DNA from: Thermoleophilia bacterium
GTDB lineage: Bacteria > Actinomycetota > Thermoleophilia > Gaiellales > F1-60-MAGs149
Length of the DNA stretch: 64,000 bases
Direction of reading: 5' to 3'
Assembly: GCA_037133755.1 (NCBI GenBank)
Contig: JBAXNN010000007.1
Coordinates: 26,545 to 90,544, forward strand
Shown here: positions 6,126 to 33,658 of the stretch, piece by piece
Numbering within the stretch: position 1 is the stretch's first letter
How the letters are laid out: every line of letters starts with the position of its first letter
The notes under the pieces: generated by a model
Told to the model about the DNA's origin: nothing
Database searches by the model: none
What the model saw: only the letters and a program-made list of their open reading frames with translations
Program-made: the position numbers and the translations under genes

Positions 6126-6489
<364 letters not shown>

Positions 6490-6508
6490 TGCTCCCAGGG
6501 CATTCGAT

Positions 6509-6541
6509 CCGCCTCCCCGACCGGGGAGGCGGTCTCGTTTC
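6509..6541 (+). terminator. Intrinsic terminator-like hairpin after ssrA
   Basis: CCGCCTCCCC-GACC-GGGGAGGCGG followed by TCTCGTTT. Confidence 0.7.
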
Positions 6542-6574
6542 GCGGCGTGTTCAGCCGGCGGTAGGCTTTTGGGC

Positions 6575-7306
6575 ATGGACGAAGCGGCGCACGAGGGGAT
6601 CGATCGTCGTGGCCTGCTGGCCGTCGGACTTGGCGGTGTGGTCGCCGCGGGGATGATCGGCGCGAGGACGGCCGACGCTGCCACCGGCAGCACGAAGGAT
6701 GGTCTGCCGAACACCGCCCACTTCCGCGTGGTGGATCGCATGGCGCGGCAGCGCGCGATCCCCGTCATCCGCGACTCCTCGTGGCGTGCGGCGCTCGCGT
6801 CGGCCCGTCGTTGGGTGGCGGCGGGGGCCACCATCGTCGAGCTGACGACGAGTACCGCCGACGTCCACCGCGCTACCCGCGCGCTCGTCGCCGAGGGCGT
6901 CGCCGTCGGGGTCGGCACGATGCGCACGCGCGACGATGTCCGCCGGGCGGCAGCAGCGGGCGCCTCGGTCGTCTTCGCACCAGGTACCTTCCCGGCGTTG
7001 ATCGACGAGGCCCTGGCACAGGGGATCGTCCCGGTACCCGGCACGATGACGCCCACCGAGGTCTATCAGTCGCTGGCGGCGCCGATGGTCAAGATCTATC
7101 CCGCCGAGGTCGTGGGCATCCCGTACCTCAAGGCACTGCTGGCGGTCTATCCGGATTTGCGCACGTATCCCAACGGCGGGTTCACGGCTGACCCTTCGGT
7201 GGCGCGAGCGTGGCTGGACGCAGGTGCCACCGCGATTGGAATCTCGGCTGGCACGTTCGACGACGAGGCCGCGATCCGCGCGTACCTCGCCGCCGTGCGT
7301 GCTTAG
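6575..7306 (+). CDS. KDPG/KHG aldolase (Eda)-family protein with a twin-arginine-type signal peptide
   Basis: IPVIR, IVELT, VGVGT, VPGTMTPTEV, VKIYPA (Schiff-base Lys) and PNGG motifs; N-terminus DRRGLL + hydrophobic stretch + ADA; TAGGCT 7 nt before the ATG. Confidence 0.8.
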   Translation: MDEAAHEGIDRRGLLAVGLGGVVAAGMIGARTADAATGSTKDGLPNTAHFRVVDRMARQRAIPVIRDSSWRAALASARRWVAAGATIVELTTSTADVHRATRALVAEGVAVGVGTMRTRDDVRRAAAAGASVVFAPGTFPALIDEALAQGIVPVPGTMTPTEVYQSLAAPMVKIYPAEVVGIPYLKALLAVYPDLRTYPNGGFTADPSVARAWLDAGATAIGISAGTFDDEAAIRAYLAAVRA

Positions 7307-7590
7307 TCCTGCAGGCCCTCGACGCCCGGTGCGGCGAACGCGACCGAGTACTCGCGGACGTCGTACTCGAAGACGCCGTTGATGATGAACGGGTCGGCGG
7401 CAATCCAGGCCTCGACTTCGCTGCGGCTGCCGGCCTTCGCGACGATCGCACCACCTGCGCCACCCTCCTCGAGTGCGCCAGCGAGGAAATGGCCCGCGCC
7501 GGCGTGCTCTTGCACCCAAGCCACGTGGCCGTCGCGGTGGGGGTCGACCTCGTCGAGCGGGGCGGTGTAACGACCGAGCAGCAGGAACAT
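7303..7590 (-). CDS. YciI family protein
   Basis: H...WV...G.FLAG, GGAIV, ADPF...GV motifs; GGAGG Shine-Dalgarno. Confidence 0.88.
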   Translation of the reverse strand: MFLLLGRYTAPLDEVDPHRDGHVAWVQEHAGAGHFLAGALEEGGAGGAIVAKAGSRSEVEAWIAADPFIINGVFEYDVREYSVAFAAPGVEGLQD

Positions 7591-7705
7591 GCGGAACCTC
7601 CGGGAGGGGCACCGGTGTGGTGCCGATGACGTGGCGCGACGGTACCAGAGCCGCGGCTGCCTGACGAGGTCGGCGGTGGGATCCGCGTGGCACTAGGCTG
7701 CAGCC

Positions 7706-8122
7706 ATGACCCTAATCGCCTCTGCCCGCTCCACGCCGCGCCTCCTCAAGCAGGACGTCCTCGTCGACGGCCGTTTTCATGTCATCACCGATGAGCCCGA
7801 GCATCTCGGCGGGACCGACGAGGGCCCTTCGCCCCACGAGTTGCTCGTCGCTGCCCTCGCGGCCTGCACCGCCACGGCCGTCTCGGCCTACGTGCGCACC
7901 AAGGAATGGGATGTCGGCGGGATCCGCGTGGACGTGGAGTACGAGCAGAAAGCCGAGCCGCGCGAGTTCCGCCTCACAATCAACCTTGAGAAGCCGATCA
8001 CCGACGAGCAACGGGATCGACTCGACAAGGTCGCCGAGAGCTGCGCCGTGCGTCGCGCATTGCTGACGGGCTTTGACATCCGCGAGTGCATCGTTGCCCA
8101 CAGCGTGGGGGATTGCGGGTAG
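7706..8122 (+). CDS. OsmC/Ohr family protein
   Basis: DEP..LGG.D.GPSPHELLVAALAACT and a second Cys in SCAVRRAL. Confidence 0.9.
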   Translation: MTLIASARSTPRLLKQDVLVDGRFHVITDEPEHLGGTDEGPSPHELLVAALAACTATAVSAYVRTKEWDVGGIRVDVEYEQKAEPREFRLTINLEKPITDEQRDRLDKVAESCAVRRALLTGFDIRECIVAHSVGDCG

Positions 8123-8176
8123 TTGTGCGAGGTAGACGCGCTGTCGAAGCGCTGGGGCAGCGAGTAGGCTTTCGCC

Positions 8177-10552
8177 ATGGCCATCTCTCCGCCGCGCACT
8201 GAACTGCCTGCCGACGAACTGGAGACGCTCGACGCGATCCAGCGACGCGTCCTCTGGCTGGCGACGCGCATGATCGACTACGCCAACCATGAGCGTCCGT
8301 CCGACGACGACCTCAAGGTCGGCGGCCACCAAGCCTCCTCGGCGTCGATGGTGACGGCGATGACCGCACTGTATTTCCACTGGCTCAAGGCGGGTGACCG
8401 CGTCGCCGTCAAACCGCACGCCTCGCCGGTGCTGCACTCGATCAACTACCTGCTCGGTCGTCTGGATCGCGAGTACCTCACGACGCTGCGGGCGTTCGGT
8501 GGGCTGCAGTCGTACCCGTCGCGCACGAAGGATCCCGATCCGATCGACTTCTCGACCGGGTCCGTGGGGCTGGGAGCGGCGGCTCCGCTCTTTGCCAGCG
8601 TTGTCGATCGCTACGTCAACGCGCATTTCGATGCTGAGCCGGGTCGCCGCTTCGTGGCGCTGATGGGCGATGCCGAACTCGACGAGGGCAACGTCTGGGA
8701 GGCGCTCGCCGATCCGGCTGCGCGTGGCCTCGGTCAGCTCACCTGGATCGTCGACTTCAATCGCCAGAGCCTCGACCGTGTGATCCCCGGCGTGCGCTCG
8801 CAGGAGTTCACGCACGTCTTCCGCGACCACGGCTGGCAGGTCGAGATCGTCAAGTACGGCTCGAAGCTGCGCGAGGCCTTTGCGCGCGAGGGCGGCGACG
8901 CGCTCGAGCGCCGCATCGATGAGATGCCGAATCCCGAGTATCAGAGCCTGCTGCGCAAGAGTGGCGCCGACATTCGCAAGCTCGTGGTCGAGAACGCTCC
9001 GGCGGGCGACCGTACGGCGCTCGGGCGGGTGCTCGAGGCCTACGAGGATGCCGCGTTGCCCGAGTTGATTGGCGACCTCGGCGGGCACGATCTCGGCGAC
9101 ATGATTGCGGCGCTGAACCGCGCCGACGCCGACCCGACGCGCCCGACCGTGATCTTCGCCTTCACCGTCAAGGGGTGGGGGCTCCCGATGGCCGGGCATC
9201 CCATGAACCACTCCGCAATTCTCTCCACGCCGCAGATCGACGAGTTGCGGTCGCAGCTCGCCGATCCCAGCGACGAGTGGGCGGGCTTCGCGTCCGACTC
9301 TGCCGCAGGGCGTGTCTGCGTGGCCTCGGCCGAGCGCCTGAGCGAGCAGCATGCCGCGGCGCCAAAGCGTGTCGACCCGTACGCGATCCCGAACGAGTTT
9401 GGCCCGGTCACGTCGCGCAAGACGTCGAGCCAGGATGCGTTTGCCCGCGTCCTGCAGGACATCGCCAACGTCGAGGAGGTCGCGCGCAGCATCGTCACGA
9501 CCAGTCCCGACGTGTCGATCTCGACGGGTCTGGGTGGCTGGATCAACAAGCGCGGCGTGTTCAGCCCCGAGATCGAGGAGGTCTTCGAGATTGAAGACGC
9601 GGGCCCGCTCAAGTGGGAGCCGTCGCCGAAGGGCCAGCACATCGAGCTCGGCATCTCGGAGATGAACCTCTTCCTGCTGCTCGGCCAGCTCGGCCTCGGC
9701 GCCGAGTTGCATGGCCACCAGCTGCTGCCGGTCGGCACGGTCTACGACCCGTTCGTCTGCCGCGGTCTCGATGCGCTGATCTACTCGGTCTACTCCGGCG
9801 CCCGTTTTGTCTTCGCGGGTACGCCGTCCGGCGTCTCGCTGTCCCGTGAGGGTGGCGCGCACCAGTCGTCGATCACCGCCTCGATCGGTATGGAGTTGCC
9901 AGGCCTGACGATGTGGGAGCCCTGCTACGCCCTCGAAACCGAGTGGGTGATGCTCCACGGCCTGCGCGACATCGTGCTGCCCGATGGCGAGGCCCACTAC
10001 CTGCGCCTGTCGACCACGCCGGTCGCGCAGGATGCCTTCACCGGTCTCCTGGAGCGCAGCGACCGCGCGTCGCTACGCGACGACGTGCTGGCTGGCGGCT
10101 ACCGCCTGGCTGAGGCCGAGGTCGGCGGACCTGGCTCGCGCGTGGTGATCGCCGCGTGCGGTGCCATGATTCCGCAGGCGCTGGCGGCACGCGAGTTGCT
10201 CGCCGCCGAGGACATCGGCGCATCGATTGTCAACGTGACGAGTCCCGATCGCCTGTTCCGCGCACTCCGGACGCGGACGAACACGCTGCGGAGCGGACGC
10301 CTGAGCGACCCGTCGATTCTCGAGCGTCTCGTGCTGCCCGAGGAGCGCGGCGTGCCGCTCGTCACCGTGCATGACGCGGCACCGCACGCGCTGTCGTTCC
10401 TCGGGGCGGCATTCGCGGCACCGCTGATCCCGCTCGGTGTTGACCGCTTCGGCCAGTGCGGCTCGCAGCCTGAGGTCTACGAGTGGCTCGACCTCAGTGC
10501 CGAGGCGATCGCGGAGGCGGCCATCGCCGGCCTCTGGCGTCCCGACGCGTGA
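8177..10552 (+). CDS. Pyruvate dehydrogenase E1 (AceE-like) / transketolase-like ThDP enzyme
   Basis: GGHQASSAS, KPHASP, STGSVGLG, ThDP motif GDAELDEG...N(RQSLD), ELGISEMN, REGGAHQS, GVDRFGQ. Confidence 0.85.
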   Translation: MAISPPRTELPADELETLDAIQRRVLWLATRMIDYANHERPSDDDLKVGGHQASSASMVTAMTALYFHWLKAGDRVAVKPHASPVLHSINYLLGRLDREYLTTLRAFGGLQSYPSRTKDPDPIDFSTGSVGLGAAAPLFASVVDRYVNAHFDAEPGRRFVALMGDAELDEGNVWEALADPAARGLGQLTWIVDFNRQSLDRVIPGVRSQEFTHVFRDHGWQVEIVKYGSKLREAFAREGGDALERRIDEMPNPEYQSLLRKSGADIRKLVVENAPAGDRTALGRVLEAYEDAALPELIGDLGGHDLGDMIAALNRADADPTRPTVIFAFTVKGWGLPMAGHPMNHSAILSTPQIDELRSQLADPSDEWAGFASDSAAGRVCVASAERLSEQHAAAPKRVDPYAIPNEFGPVTSRKTSSQDAFARVLQDIANVEEVARSIVTTSPDVSISTGLGGWINKRGVFSPEIEEVFEIEDAGPLKWEPSPKGQHIELGISEMNLFLLLGQLGLGAELHGHQLLPVGTVYDPFVCRGLDALIYSVYSGARFVFAGTPSGVSLSREGGAHQSSITASIGMELPGLTMWEPCYALETEWVMLHGLRDIVLPDGEAHYLRLSTTPVAQDAFTGLLERSDRASLRDDVLAGGYRLAEAEVGGPGSRVVIAACGAMIPQALAARELLAAEDIGASIVNVTSPDRLFRALRTRTNTLRSGRLSDPSILERLVLPEERGVPLVTVHDAAPHALSFLGAAFAAPLIPLGVDRFGQCGSQPEVYEWLDLSAEAIAEAAIAGLWRPDA

Positions 10553-11313
10553 CCGACCTGCCCGAGCACGTTGCCGCGAATGCGCGGTACTGGAACGGTC
10601 GAGCGGCGAGCTTCGCTGTGGCCGGCGAGGAGGCCTGGTCGAGCGAGCCGCACTGGGGCATCTTCGGCGTGCCGGACGTGGAGGTCGGCGTCTTGCCTGC
10701 GTCGGTGGAGGGGTTGGACACGATCGAGCTCGGGTGCGGCACGGCGTACGTGTCGGCGTGGCTCGCGCGGCGTGGAGCGCGGCCCGCGGGTATCGATATC
10801 TCCGAGGAGCAGCTCGCGACTGCCCGCCGGCTGCAAGCAGCTCACGCACTGGAGTTCCCGCTGCTGCACGGCAACGCGGAGCGGACGCCGTTTGCCGACG
10901 ATTCGTTCGACCTGGCAATCTCCGAGTTCGGCGCGAGCATCTGGTGCGATCCGCACGTCTGGATTCCGGAGGCAGCGCGCATCCTGCGGCCTGGTGGCGA
11001 GCTCATCTTCCTCGTCGGTTCGGTGATCGGCATGCTCTGCGTCGGTGATCTCGCCGATGACGTCGTAGGGACCGAGCTGATGCGACCGCAACGCGGCATG
11101 GGCGTGTTCGACTGGCCGGACGAGGATGCCGTGGAGTTCCACGTGTCGCACGGCGAGCAGATCCGCATCCTGCGCGAGAGTGGCTTCGAGCTGGAGGAGC
11201 TGATCGAGCTCTACGTCTCGGCAGATGCCACGACGCGTTTCCCGTACGTCACGGGCGAGTGGGCCTCGCAGTGGCCTGTCGAAGAGGTGTGGCGGGCGCG
11301 CCTGCGCGGCTGA
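10549..11313 (+). CDS. Class I SAM-dependent methyltransferase
   Basis: Motif I IELGCGTA, GIDIS, NAERTPFADDSFDL, RILRPGG; GTG start overlaps the upstream TGA. Confidence 0.9.
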   Translation: MTDLPEHVAANARYWNGRAASFAVAGEEAWSSEPHWGIFGVPDVEVGVLPASVEGLDTIELGCGTAYVSAWLARRGARPAGIDISEEQLATARRLQAAHALEFPLLHGNAERTPFADDSFDLAISEFGASIWCDPHVWIPEAARILRPGGELIFLVGSVIGMLCVGDLADDVVGTELMRPQRGMGVFDWPDEDAVEFHVSHGEQIRILRESGFELEELIELYVSADATTRFPYVTGEWASQWPVEEVWRARLRG

Positions 11314-30525: not shown

Positions 30526-31482
30526 ATGAAGCGCTCCCTGCGCCTACTCACGCTATTCGCACTCGTCGCTGTCGCCTTCTTGGCTGCCGCGAATATCGGT
30601 GTGGCAAAGCCGCACTCGGCAGCGACGCGCCAGGTGCCAAACTGCACCCCGAACCCCGTGCAGACCTACCCCTGCGCCATCGCGGGGACCACGGCGTCGT
30701 CGGCGGAACAGCTCGTGCAGATCTGTAACGCAAACCCCATGGCGTGTGGCATGGCTCCCGGCGAGGAAATCAAGCCGTGCGAGCCGGGCAAGATGCCCAC
30801 GCGCGACAAGCCATGCATCCCGGCTACGGAGGGCGGCAACGGCGGTACCGGTGGAGGTATGCCGAACATCGACTGGGGCAAGTTGCAGCCGTGCGCGGTA
30901 GGCCAGCTGCCGACGCCGACCGCACCGTGCAAGGTTGACCTGCCGGATTGTGCGGCGGGGCAAAAGCCTTCGGCGAATTCGCCCTGCAAGCCGGCGCCGT
31001 GTGCGCCGGGGGTTACGCCGTCGCGGGACGCCCCGTGCCTGCCCGCGGGACTCGACGGCGGCTTCGAGGCGCAGCCGACGAACGACATCAAGAAGCAGCT
31101 CAACAACAAGTTCATCGTCGTGAACATGAACGTCGAGGGCAGCAGCGATGCGAACGGCTCGTTTGAAGTCACCTTCAAGAGCGTTGAGGACGGCGTCAAC
31201 AAGCAGACCAAGGCATACCTCAACGACCAGCTCGAGGGCGAGTCGTTCGTCATCAACACCAACGCCGCCACCAAGTGCTTCGCCGACACCACCGACCCGG
31301 ACAAGATCCCGGACCTCGTGTCGTGCAGGGAGCTCGATGACGCGGCCAACAATGCGCCCGGCTCGATCAAGGCGCAGTTCCGCGGCAAGGTGACGTTCGA
31401 CGCGGCGACCTACCAGCCGACGTTCAAGGCACAGAAGATCGTGTTCCTGAAGGGCGTCTTCAACGTCGCGAAGATCAGCTAG
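30526..31482 (+). CDS. Secreted hypothetical protein with Cys/Pro repeats and a C-terminal beta domain
   Basis: Signal peptide; four C-x2-G-x2-P-[ST]-x3-P-C units; Shine-Dalgarno AGAGGA. Confidence 0.75.
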   Translation: MKRSLRLLTLFALVAVAFLAAANIGVAKPHSAATRQVPNCTPNPVQTYPCAIAGTTASSAEQLVQICNANPMACGMAPGEEIKPCEPGKMPTRDKPCIPATEGGNGGTGGGMPNIDWGKLQPCAVGQLPTPTAPCKVDLPDCAAGQKPSANSPCKPAPCAPGVTPSRDAPCLPAGLDGGFEAQPTNDIKKQLNNKFIVVNMNVEGSSDANGSFEVTFKSVEDGVNKQTKAYLNDQLEGESFVINTNAATKCFADTTDPDKIPDLVSCRELDDAANNAPGSIKAQFRGKVTFDAATYQPTFKAQKIVFLKGVFNVAKIS

Positions 31483-31521
31483 CACCGCAGGCGCGCTGCG
31501 CCCCGCGTGACCGCGCGATAC

Positions 31522-31551
31522 GAGGGCCCGCTCCAGCCGGAGCGGGCCCTC
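31522..31551. terminator. 13-bp hairpin between convergent genes
   Basis: GAGGGCCCGCTCC-AGCC-GGAGCGGGCCCTC. Confidence 0.75.
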
Positions 31552-31564
31552 CGTCGTTCTCGGT

Positions 31565-32989
31565 CTACTCCTGGACGACGAGGACTGTCGCGAGCATCGG
31601 GTCGCCGCAGTAGGCGATGCGCGTGCCGCTCTGGGCCTCGGCCTGCAGCGCTGCGAGTACGTCGCCGTTGATGCGCTCACCCGGTGCCAGCGCGGGCACG
31701 CCGGGCGGGTAGGGGACAGCGGACTCCGCGGCGATGCGACCGATCGCGTCGGCAGCCGAGACGCGCTCGTGGTCGGCGAAGAACGCATCGCGCGGCGTCA
31801 TCGCCGTATCTGGGTCGAGCGTCCAAGCGATCGTGTGGACGAGCTTGCGCGGCTCGCCGCGGTGCTCTTCGATCGCGCGGATGATCTCGGTGGTCATGAA
31901 ATCGACGGACTCCGGCGTGTCGCCGAGGGTGATGACGGGGCAAAACGTGTCGCGGTCGGCGAACTCGAGGTGGAGGCCACGCTGCTCGAGGACGTCGGCG
32001 ACGGCCTGCCCGTCCGCGCCCGTGCCACTCAGCGTGAGCACGATCTTGGTGGGATCGTGCTGGAACAGGGCGGGAGAGCGATTGGCGATCTCCATGCCGA
32101 CGACGCCGAGTCCCGGCACCTGGCGGAAGCGCACGCGCGCCTCCTCCGCAAGGCGGATGGCCTGGCCGAGCAGTTCCTCGCCACGCTCCTGGAGGAGGTC
32201 GCGGGCCAGGTCGATGCTCGCGAAGATCGCGCCGGACGGGCTGGTCGTGTGCAGACCCTCAAACGCCGCCTCGAGTCGCTCGAGGTCGATGCGCTCGCCC
32301 TGCGCCAGCACCATGGACGACTGCGTGAAGCCCGTGATGTGCTTGTGGATGCTCGTCACGAGCACGTCGGCACCCGCCTGAATGGCGTGCGGCGGCAGGT
32401 CGGGGTGGAAGCCGAGGTGTGCGCCCCAGGCGGCATCGACGGTGAGGGGAATGCCATGGGCGTGTGCCAGCTCGGCGTGCGCCGCAACATCGGAGACGCC
32501 GCCGACGTAGCTCGGCTCGACGAGCATCACGGCCTTGGCGTCCGGATGCTCCTTGAGTGCGTCCGCGACGCGACTGACCGGCATGCCGGCCGTCAGGCCC
32601 GTCTCCTCATCGATATCGGGACGGATCCAGACGGGCACGAGACCGGCCAGCACGATCCCGAAGAACAGCGACTTGTGGATCGTGCGTGCGACGATCACCT
32701 TGTCGCCCGGCTTGCCGAGCGAGAGGCAGATCGCCTCGTTGCCATGGGAGGAGCCCTGGACGGAGAAGCCGCACCAGTCAGCGCCCCACAGCTCGCCCGC
32801 GATGCGCTCGGCGGTAGCGAGGCGCTTGGTCGACACGCGGCGATCCTCGACGCCCGTGTAGTGGGGGACGTCGAGTGCCAGGAGGTCGTCGATCAGCTCT
32901 GGATTGCGCTTGTGGCCGGGCACCGTGAACGGCGTGCCGGCATCAGCGAGGAAGTTCCTGTAGGCGTCGTACAGCGGGGTTTCGCTCAT
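31565..32989 (-). CDS. PLP-dependent Orn/Lys/Arg decarboxylase (fold type I)
   Basis: FTVPGHK, GSSHGN, RTIHKS, VDAAWGAH, TSIHK (PLP Lys), TTSPS, PYPPGVP..PGE. Confidence 0.9.
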   Translation of the reverse strand: MSETPLYDAYRNFLADAGTPFTVPGHKRNPELIDDLLALDVPHYTGVEDRRVSTKRLATAERIAGELWGADWCGFSVQGSSHGNEAICLSLGKPGDKVIVARTIHKSLFFGIVLAGLVPVWIRPDIDEETGLTAGMPVSRVADALKEHPDAKAVMLVEPSYVGGVSDVAAHAELAHAHGIPLTVDAAWGAHLGFHPDLPPHAIQAGADVLVTSIHKHITGFTQSSMVLAQGERIDLERLEAAFEGLHTTSPSGAIFASIDLARDLLQERGEELLGQAIRLAEEARVRFRQVPGLGVVGMEIANRSPALFQHDPTKIVLTLSGTGADGQAVADVLEQRGLHLEFADRDTFCPVITLGDTPESVDFMTTEIIRAIEEHRGEPRKLVHTIAWTLDPDTAMTPRDAFFADHERVSAADAIGRIAAESAVPYPPGVPALAPGERINGDVLAALQAEAQSGTRIAYCGDPMLATVLVVQE

Positions 32990-33154
32990 CGTTGCGGTCT
33001 CCAGCGATCGGCCGTCGAACCTCGGCGGCGTCTTTTCGGATTACGGATGTGAGCCGCCCAGACCGCCGATTGCGCGGGCAGGGCTCCCGTGGACGTGCTG
33101 GGTGAGCGTACCCCACCGACCGGCCGCATGGGGGCGATCTGGCACCCTCTGGGC

Positions 33155-33592
33155 ATGCGCCTCGTCCTGCAGCGGGTTTCGGAAGCCTCCGTCTCGGTGG
33201 GCGGCGAAGTTGTCGGCGCGATTGGTCACGGACTCGTGGCGCTCGTGGGCATCGGCGAGGGCGACGACGCGAAGACCGTGACGCGCGCAGCCGAGAAGAC
33301 CGCCGAGATGCGCATCTTCCGCGACGATGACGGGCGCTTTGATCGTTCGGTGATCGACGTCGAGGGCTCGGTGCTCGTCATCTCGCAGTTCACGCTGCTC
33401 GCCGACACCCGGCGTGGCAACCGCCCGTCGTTTACGTGGGCGGCCGACCCCGCGGTCGCCGAACCGCTCGTGAGCCTGTACATCGAGACCCTGAAGGGCC
33501 TTGGCGCGACCGTGGCCGGCGGTCGTTTTGGCGCCGACATGCAGGTTGCGCTCGTCAACGACGGTCCGGTCACGATCGTCCACGACTCCTGA
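33155..33592 (+). CDS. dtd: D-aminoacyl-tRNA deacylase
   Basis: MRLVLQRVSEASV, SQFTL, GNRPSF, FGADMQV.LVNDGPVT. Confidence 0.97.
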   Translation: MRLVLQRVSEASVSVGGEVVGAIGHGLVALVGIGEGDDAKTVTRAAEKTAEMRIFRDDDGRFDRSVIDVEGSVLVISQFTLLADTRRGNRPSFTWAADPAVAEPLVSLYIETLKGLGATVAGGRFGADMQVALVNDGPVTIVHDS

Positions 33593-33658
33593 GCGACACC
33601 CCCGAAGCCTCACGTCTGGTAGCGTTCGACACGAGCGCGGCAGTGATGCGCTCGGCCG

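Follow-up and report, generated by a model that had tools for sequence, protein, structure and literature searches.

The window analysed here is a stretch of 64,000 nucleotides of Thermoleophilia bacterium DNA (assembly GCA_037133755.1, contig JBAXNN010000007.1, positions 26,545 to 90,544 of the forward strand). At positions 6575–7306 it carries a gene for an aldolase of the Eda family that is predicted to be exported. The coding sequence specifies 243 amino acids plus the stop codon, and its product is identical to database protein P0001. On the balance of the comparative evidence, this protein is probably a catalytically competent, exported class I pyruvate aldolase with altered specificity and a substrate that is likely to be non-phosphorylated. 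Export across the cytoplasmic membrane is well supported by sequence comparison, and routing by twin-arginine translocation (Tat) rather than by the general secretory (Sec) pathway is likely. Eda-family aldolases are textbook cytoplasmic enzymes of the Entner–Doudoroff and hydroxyproline routes, and are widely used as biocatalysts and as scaffolds for nanocages. No description of an exported Eda-type aldolase turned up in literature searches. An exported aldolase had been proposed in an earlier, sequence-only reading of the window. That proposal now has strong comparative support from four sources: the arginine pair (RR) is kept among relatives, an AxA site is exchanged for a lipobox within the clade, the leader is under purifying selection and the genome encodes Tat components. 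The aldolase gene and the features mapped within and upstream of it lie on the forward strand.

The N-terminal leader and the exported clade

Residues 1–35 (6575–6679) form the predicted signal peptide, an assignment based on low confidence in the structural model, conservation within the clade and the ratio of non-synonymous to synonymous substitutions (dN/dS). The layout is M1...I9-D-R11-R12-G-L-L, with an uncharged, Gly/Ala-rich segment from G13 to A30, followed by R31, A33-D34-A35 and A36. Codons for the paired arginines lie at 6605–6610. A33-D34-A35 (6671–6679) is a predicted signal peptidase I site, with the cut expected before A36. The uncharged core comprises 18 residues with a mean Kyte–Doolittle hydropathy of 1.96, and the protein shows the twin-arginine/signal peptidase I pattern of RR, a weakly hydrophobic core and AxA within about 40 residues. 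The earlier description of this N-terminus, as an RR motif with an h-region and an AxA site, is accurate. The start of the mature protein is marked by D42-G-L-P-N46 (6698–6712), a clade-specific motif at which the compared relatives are gapped. There is no cysteine anywhere in the window protein.

Conservation of this leader was surveyed in 31 complete N-termini, taken from a protein search and from loci of genome and metagenome collections. All carry RR followed by 17–35 uncharged residues, which bears out the expectation that orthologues keep the motif; the pair is also invariant in alignment A2. What ends the leader differs between two subclades. In 13 of the 31, including the window protein, an AxA site lies near residue 35. 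The other 18 form a sister subclade, in which every member has a cysteine 17–21 residues past RR in a lipobox of the form L-A-G-C or a variant of it. Behind a linker of variable length, the motif [D/N/S]-G-[L/F/Y]-P-N opens the mature domain in all 31, and its G43, P45 and N46 are specific to the clade. The leader columns are gapped in 228 relatives of leaderless length. A switch of signal peptidase class inside one orthologous group is otherwise hard to explain, which argues that the leader is an export signal.

The extension also evolves as coding sequence. Pairwise comparison of four orthologues from the genus gives dN/dS values over codons 1–37 of 0.20–0.27 for five of six pairs and 0.66 for the remaining one; for the barrel the range is 0.12–0.17. 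Judged from these ratios, the leader is under purifying selection. A mis-called start, with the real protein beginning near M55 (DRMARQR...) as an ordinary cytoplasmic aldolase for KDPG (2-keto-3-deoxy-6-phosphogluconate) or KHG (2-keto-4-hydroxyglutarate), is extremely improbable. Its appeal is that an in-frame Met stands at residue 55, about where leaderless relatives begin, and that the first tblastn match in two relatives began a few codons into the query. Set against this, the 54 upstream codons show protein-level conservation, at a dN/dS of about 0.2, and RR, the hydrophobic core, AxA or lipobox and the DGLPN motif are kept in all 31 N-termini. Met55 itself is absent from the lipobox subclade, where AFARQ, ILAAQ and similar sequences occur instead, and the genome lacks the dehydratase Edd that a cytoplasmic KDPG route would use. 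Two findings that could have undone the sequence-only reading, orthologues lacking the extension and a true start downstream of RR, are thus contradicted by the comparison.

Sequence upstream of the gene also speaks for the long form. TAGGCT (6562–6567), a possible −10 element of the type TANNNT, lies 7 nt before the ATG, and four orthologues, whose flanking bases differ, have a TANNNT hexamer 6–7 nt ahead of the long-form start codon. Such a placement would fit a leaderless mRNA of actinobacterial type; leaderless mRNAs are generally known from actinobacteria, and this background underlies the promoter reading. A scan for the sigma-70 consensus found no promoter. An alternative TTG start codon occurs at 6569, two codons before the ATG.

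Exported forms are confined to a small clade. A search of 5.8 billion proteins yielded twelve close relatives with 74–100% identity and the same length, all with RR. The same search found a more distant group at 44–53% identity that retains RR and the hydrophobic core and in which the leader ends in a lipobox. In a maximum-likelihood tree built on columns without the leader, the exported forms are one clade (SH-aLRT 100, stem length 0.6), within which the AxA and lipobox forms separate. P0020 seems to break this pattern only because its gene call is truncated at the N-terminus. When 1.84 billion representatives were searched with a profile, 8741 family members were recovered. Only three clusters at 50% identity have a leader, namely P0001, the lipobox-type P0121 and P0122, which is a second AxA lineage. 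Members of the clade come from metagenome-assembled genomes (MAGs) of Gaiellales and other Actinomycetota, mostly aquatic, with samples from Lac Pavin, Lake Mendota and Shark River Slough. Another database entry, P0006, has a frameshifted C-terminus.

The nearest relatives, both by sequence (about 40–43% identity) and in the tree, are leaderless actinobacterial aldolases of about 200 amino acids, such as P0021 and P0124. They have the R-E-T-K set of active-site residues and an ELT[TM][ST]T motif in common with the exported clade. They differ from it in having no leader and in retaining the G-[LVI]-G-[SG] loop. Among these relatives, P0123 and P0127 are fusions that involve a PfkB sugar kinase (its C-terminal part) and an SMP-30/gluconolactonase domain, and the ancestor therefore probably served cytoplasmic sugar-acid catabolism.

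The export route

The source genome (G000) is a 2.45-Mb MAG estimated to be 95% complete. Its contig C1 encodes TatC (197 bits) and two adjacent TatA/B genes. A loose genome scan for RR leaders was made, and four of the clearer candidates were annotated. These convincing Tat substrates, with leaders similar to that of the aldolase, are a Dyp-type peroxidase, a BBE/FAD oxidase, a flavin amine oxidase and a solute-binding protein. RR is combined with a lipobox in the flavin amine oxidase (L157, contig C6: 91215–92564) and the solute-binding protein (L156, contig C5: 36875–38164); Tat-type lipoproteins therefore seem to be present in this organism too.

Two sets of observations tell against Tat routing. 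The Tat hidden Markov models (HMMs) PF10518 and TIGR01409 give no match for the window protein; one orthologue reaches 14.8 against a PF10518 threshold of 22.7, and TIGR01409 gives one lipobox member 15 where 16.7 is needed. Paired arginines are also found in Sec leaders of high-GC actinobacteria. Export itself is accordingly judged well supported, and the Tat route, with the models below threshold, only likely. Export through Sec, with the paired arginines simply forming the positive n-region of a leader in an Arg-rich, high-GC proteome, is unlikely. It would accommodate the HMM scores, and the loose scan also picked up numerous N-termini with RR or KR that are of ordinary Sec-like or membrane type. 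The pair is nevertheless invariant in 31 sequences whose identity drops to about 45%, against an otherwise variable n-region, and the surrounding pattern [FIL][DN]RRx[LF][LF]A is similar to the Tat consensus. Gly and Ala are abundant in the core, which is only weakly hydrophobic (mean Kyte–Doolittle 1.0–2.0), and a basic residue, R31, stands in the c-region of the window protein. As general knowledge, Eda-type barrels fold and trimerize in the cytoplasm, which suits the Tat pathway.

Tat substrates fall into those cleaved by signal peptidase I (class I), lipoproteins (class II) and those with an uncleaved anchor (PMC13673990). The exported aldolases match class I and class II substrates in RR, in the weakly hydrophobic core and in the AxA site or lipobox, and both classes occur here in one orthologous clade. 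They depart from these classes in falling below the PF10518 and TIGR01409 cut-offs, in lacking Ser or Thr before RR and in lacking Lys after FL. In the genus of the window, the leader might instead stay uncleaved as an N-terminal membrane anchor (class III), leaving the enzyme membrane-bound on the outside. This is a recognized class of Tat signal (PMC13673990), and the sister subclade is predicted to be tethered to the membrane through its lipobox. It is very improbable for the window protein, given that AxA stands at the right distance from RR in 13 of 13 subclade members and that a core of only 18 uncharged, Gly-rich residues would be weak for a stable anchor. Cleavage by signal peptidase I is the preferred reading here.

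The barrel, its active site and the acceptor pocket

Residues 54–222 (6734–7240) form the (beta/alpha)8 barrel of a KDPG/KHG aldolase, as identified by Pfam, by structural modelling and by structure search. The match to PF01081 scores 83 bits against a gathering cut-off of 27.8. All eight NCBIfam Eda models, among them TIGR01182 and PRK07455, match below their curated cut-offs; the best is TIGR01182, with 103 bits against 156. An AlphaFold2 model built with 24 homologues shows an eight-stranded barrel with a mean predicted local distance difference test score (pLDDT) of 87. This score is below 50 for residues 1–37 and is 87–99 from residue 41 on. Foldseek searches with the model retrieve the KDPG aldolase TM0066 of Thermotoga maritima (1vlw, 1wa3) and engineered derivatives of it with E-values of about 1e-15; target-normalized template modelling (TM) scores against the TM0066 structures are 0.84–0.87. 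An ESM Atlas feature search returned weak matches only (0.87 or lower) to other TIM-barrel families and was uninformative.

Residue roles were assigned by sequence alignment of 19 exported sequences, Escherichia coli Eda (from NC_000913) and 228 relatives of leaderless length (185–240 amino acids). R66 (6770–6772), an Arg on strand beta-1, is family-wide, being present in 19/19 exported and 221/228 compared sequences. E. coli Eda has Val at this position and uses R49 instead; the R49 position is Ser in the aldolase. We take R66 to be the carboxylate-binding Arg, equivalent to R17 in the T. maritima enzyme. The general base E45 of E. coli Eda aligns with E89 (6839–6841; 19/19 and 227/228), the substrate-recognition residue T73 with T115 (6917–6919; 19/19 and 217/228) and the Schiff-base lysine K133 with K173 (7091–7093; 19/19 and 225/228). 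The catalytic and recognition residues reported for Eda are K133, E45, R49, T73 and F135 (PMC5334617). The sequence-only reading had recognized a complete Eda-type barrel with its Glu (in IVEL) and Lys (in VKIYPA), and both assignments hold in the alignment.

The acceptor pocket is partly changed. In E. coli Eda the phosphoryl-binding site consists of G162, G163 and S184, with T161 as a bridging residue, and the substitutions S184L/F and T161S raise activity on non-phosphorylated substrates (PMC3962226). The corresponding stretches of the window protein are N200-G201-G202 (7172–7180), aligned with T161-G162-G163, and the remodelled loop G222-I-S-A225 (7238–7249), aligned with G182-G183-S184. 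Two of the four E. coli positions are thus altered, T161 to N200 and S184 to A225. Asn replaces T161 throughout the subclade of the window. The S184 position of exported proteins is Ala or Gly and never Ser. Gly at the G183 position is found in 0/19 exported proteins versus 215/228 compared relatives. The clade has also lost two residues before the catalytic Lys (SLAAPxxK). About 15 further positions are clade-specific, including D67 beside the Arg, T92 beside the R49 position, W80 and R211.

In sum of its likenesses to E. coli Eda and TM0066, the aldolase shares with both the (beta/alpha)8 fold and, in the active site, the Schiff-base Lys, general-base Glu and Thr. Strand beta-1 carries the T. 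maritima-type Arg, and the Gly-Gly of the acceptor loop is present as well. It differs from known Eda proteins in the added 35-residue export leader and DGLPN motif, in scoring under every NCBIfam Eda cut-off, in coming from a genome without Edd, and in the replaced T161, the remodelled G183/S184 loop and the shortened segment before the catalytic Lys.

Several points count against an exported enzyme with a new specificity. No conserved partner gene, be it a transporter, a dehydratase or an oxidase, points to a substrate. The gene is being lost in some genomes of the genus, where G042 keeps a pseudogene and G006 a remnant, and is dispensable there. G162 and G163 are retained, and Ser is also absent from the S184 position in 83/228 compared relatives; the pocket change is for that reason only suggestive, and the data fit a changed acceptor specificity to that degree. 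The lack of metabolic partner genes and the dispensability of the gene in the genus, together with the long stem branch (0.6) and the many clade-specific substitutions, would also suit an exported protein that has ceased to be an enzyme, its barrel now binding a ligand or serving as a structural envelope protein. Such a loss of function is improbable. The Schiff-base Lys, the general-base Glu and the pyruvate-site Arg and Thr are present in 19/19 exported proteins, as in active family members, and the barrel is constrained at the dN/dS values given above (0.12–0.17). The suggestion in the sequence-only reading that the protein had been repurposed as a binding protein is disfavoured on the same ground, since the four catalytic residues (Arg, Glu, Thr and Lys) do not vary within the clade. 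A competent aldolase is therefore preferred.

Proposed function and genomic setting

The proposed mechanism may be outlined as follows. (i) The 35-residue twin-arginine leader would send the folded protein, perhaps as the assembled trimer, through TatABC. (ii) In this genus, signal peptidase I would cut after A-D-A and free the enzyme in soluble form, either into the wall zone or into the medium. (iii) In sister lineages, the lipobox cysteine would tether the enzyme to the membrane on its outer face. (iv) The enzyme would cleave or form non-phosphorylated 4-hydroxy-2-oxo or 2-keto-3-deoxy acids. (v) The products of cleavage would be pyruvate and an aldehyde that the cell can take up. From sequence, we infer the export, the Tat route, the cleavage after A35 and the kind of substrate. 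Class I Schiff-base aldolases need no metal, nucleotide or other cofactor, and activity outside the cell is therefore plausible.

The case for a non-phosphorylated substrate draws on the predicted location, on the missing Edd and on the two of four acceptor-pocket positions that are changed. The 95% complete assembly contains no second PF01081 gene. It also contains no Edd: the only gene of the ILVD/EDD family is IlvD, with 639 bits on the IlvD model TIGR00110 (above cut-off); on the Edd model it reaches 221 against 708. An Entner–Doudoroff role for the aldolase is thereby excluded, in keeping with the earlier remark that the gene stands beside ssrA without Entner–Doudoroff genes. A non-phosphorylated substrate is most likely because Edd is absent, no supply of sugar phosphates is to be expected outside the cell and the pocket is partly remodelled. 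More tentatively, the clade may act as a cofactor-free scavenger outside the membrane of aquatic actinobacteria, splitting dissolved non-phosphorylated 2-keto-3-deoxy or 4-hydroxy-2-oxo acids so that pyruvate and a small aldehyde can be taken up. If so, these proteins would be the first extracytoplasmic members of the family and would carry out an undescribed step of extracellular aldol cleavage.

The closest precedent, in logic, is Rv0132c of Mycobacterium tuberculosis. This homologue of a sugar-phosphate enzyme has a 38-residue leader with Tat and lipobox features and is Tat-exported; it is inactive on glucose-6-phosphate and differs from Fgd1 at phosphate-binding residues (PMC3478262). The evolutionary logic appears to be the same: a member of a cytoplasmic sugar-phosphate family has gained an RR leader, a changed phosphate site and an envelope role on another substrate. 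The two proteins are unrelated in fold and chemistry, and Rv0132c uses the F420 cofactor. Export of Rv0132c has been shown by experiment, whereas that of the aldolase is predicted.

If the clade is naturally exported and its acceptor pocket altered, monoderm bacteria would be shown to be able to carry out aldol cleavage of keto acids outside the cell. The automatic labels ‘KDPG aldolase’ and ‘Entner–Doudoroff aldolase’ would then probably be wrong for this clade, as happened with Rv0132c. If the reading is true, the clade also offers a natural variant with a different specificity for non-phosphorylated substrates. The reach of these implications is moderate, as the clade is small.

The gene lies 84 nt downstream of ssrA, the gene for transfer-messenger RNA (tmRNA; 6126–6491; ARAGORN, and Rfam RF00023 with 165.6 bits). 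A GC-rich hairpin with a T-rich tail (6509–6532) is the likely ssrA terminator between the two. On the reverse strand, a convergent YCII-domain gene (7303–7590; Pfam PF03795) overlaps the aldolase stop codon and is not tied to the aldolase. The neighbourhood as a whole consists of an MMPL transporter, the tmRNA, the YCII-domain gene, OsmC and a pyruvate-dehydrogenase E1-like gene.

Gene content downstream of ssrA (window positions 6126–8176) varies across 27 genomes of the genus. Three layouts occur among 20 genomes (loci L048–L067). The order tmRNA–aldolase–YCII–OsmC–E1 is intact in G000, G008, G009 and G024 and broken in G042. YCII and OsmC without the aldolase are found in G005 and G006. 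In nine genomes the E1 gene directly follows the tmRNA. The broken copy in G042 (L059, 1940–2700) is a pseudogene with frameshifts near both ends and an in-frame stop at the position of Trp70. In G006, a very close relative with a tmRNA 98% identical, only a remnant of the aldolase gene is left (L049, reverse strand, about 590–830). Its fragments match window positions 6400–6598, 7076–7129 and 7281 onward, that is, the 5′ end, an internal piece of 54 bp and the 3′ end. One of the deletion junctions lies at a direct repeat, CGTACCTC, which in the window stands at the ends of 7102–7129 and of 7261–7288. Layouts and remnants together indicate that the gene is accessory and is being lost in some lineages, with the intact copies under purifying selection.

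Candidate associations of the gene were also considered. An operon link with YCII and OsmC was rejected because both occur without the aldolase in G005 and G006. An integrase-borne ssrA island was likewise rejected: no integrase or att-like repeat was found at the spot, no direct repeat of the tmRNA 3′ end flanks it and no integrase-sized open reading frame (ORF) lies between the tmRNA and AceE. A periplasmic-style sugar-acid pathway is not supported here, as no sugar-acid dehydratase was among the clearer candidates of the loose RR-leader scan, four of which were annotated.

Across the clade, the neighbours vary by lineage and include an epoxide hydrolase, an MFS transporter with acyltransferase-3, DUF347, an FAA hydrolase with DUF4915 and cytochrome bd with CydDC. 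A divergent epoxide hydrolase gene lies about 40 bp from a lipobox-type aldolase gene at six loci (L013, 6032–7183; L016, 738–1919; L075; L076; L078; L079), which represent at least two lineages of different GC content. Its product has EHN plus alpha/beta-hydrolase domains and no leader.

Two minor observations concern other genes. In the window, the longest ORF of the gene after the E1-like gene (10483–11313) overlaps the end of that gene by 70 nt; its true start is probably downstream, because the orthologues in L008 and L010 start later (254 amino acids). On contig C1 of the source genome, the RR-leader scan picked up two identical ORFs of 283 codons at 30934–31785 and 32788–33639, 1.85 kb apart, which suggest either that a tandem duplication happened recently or that the assembly contains a repeat.

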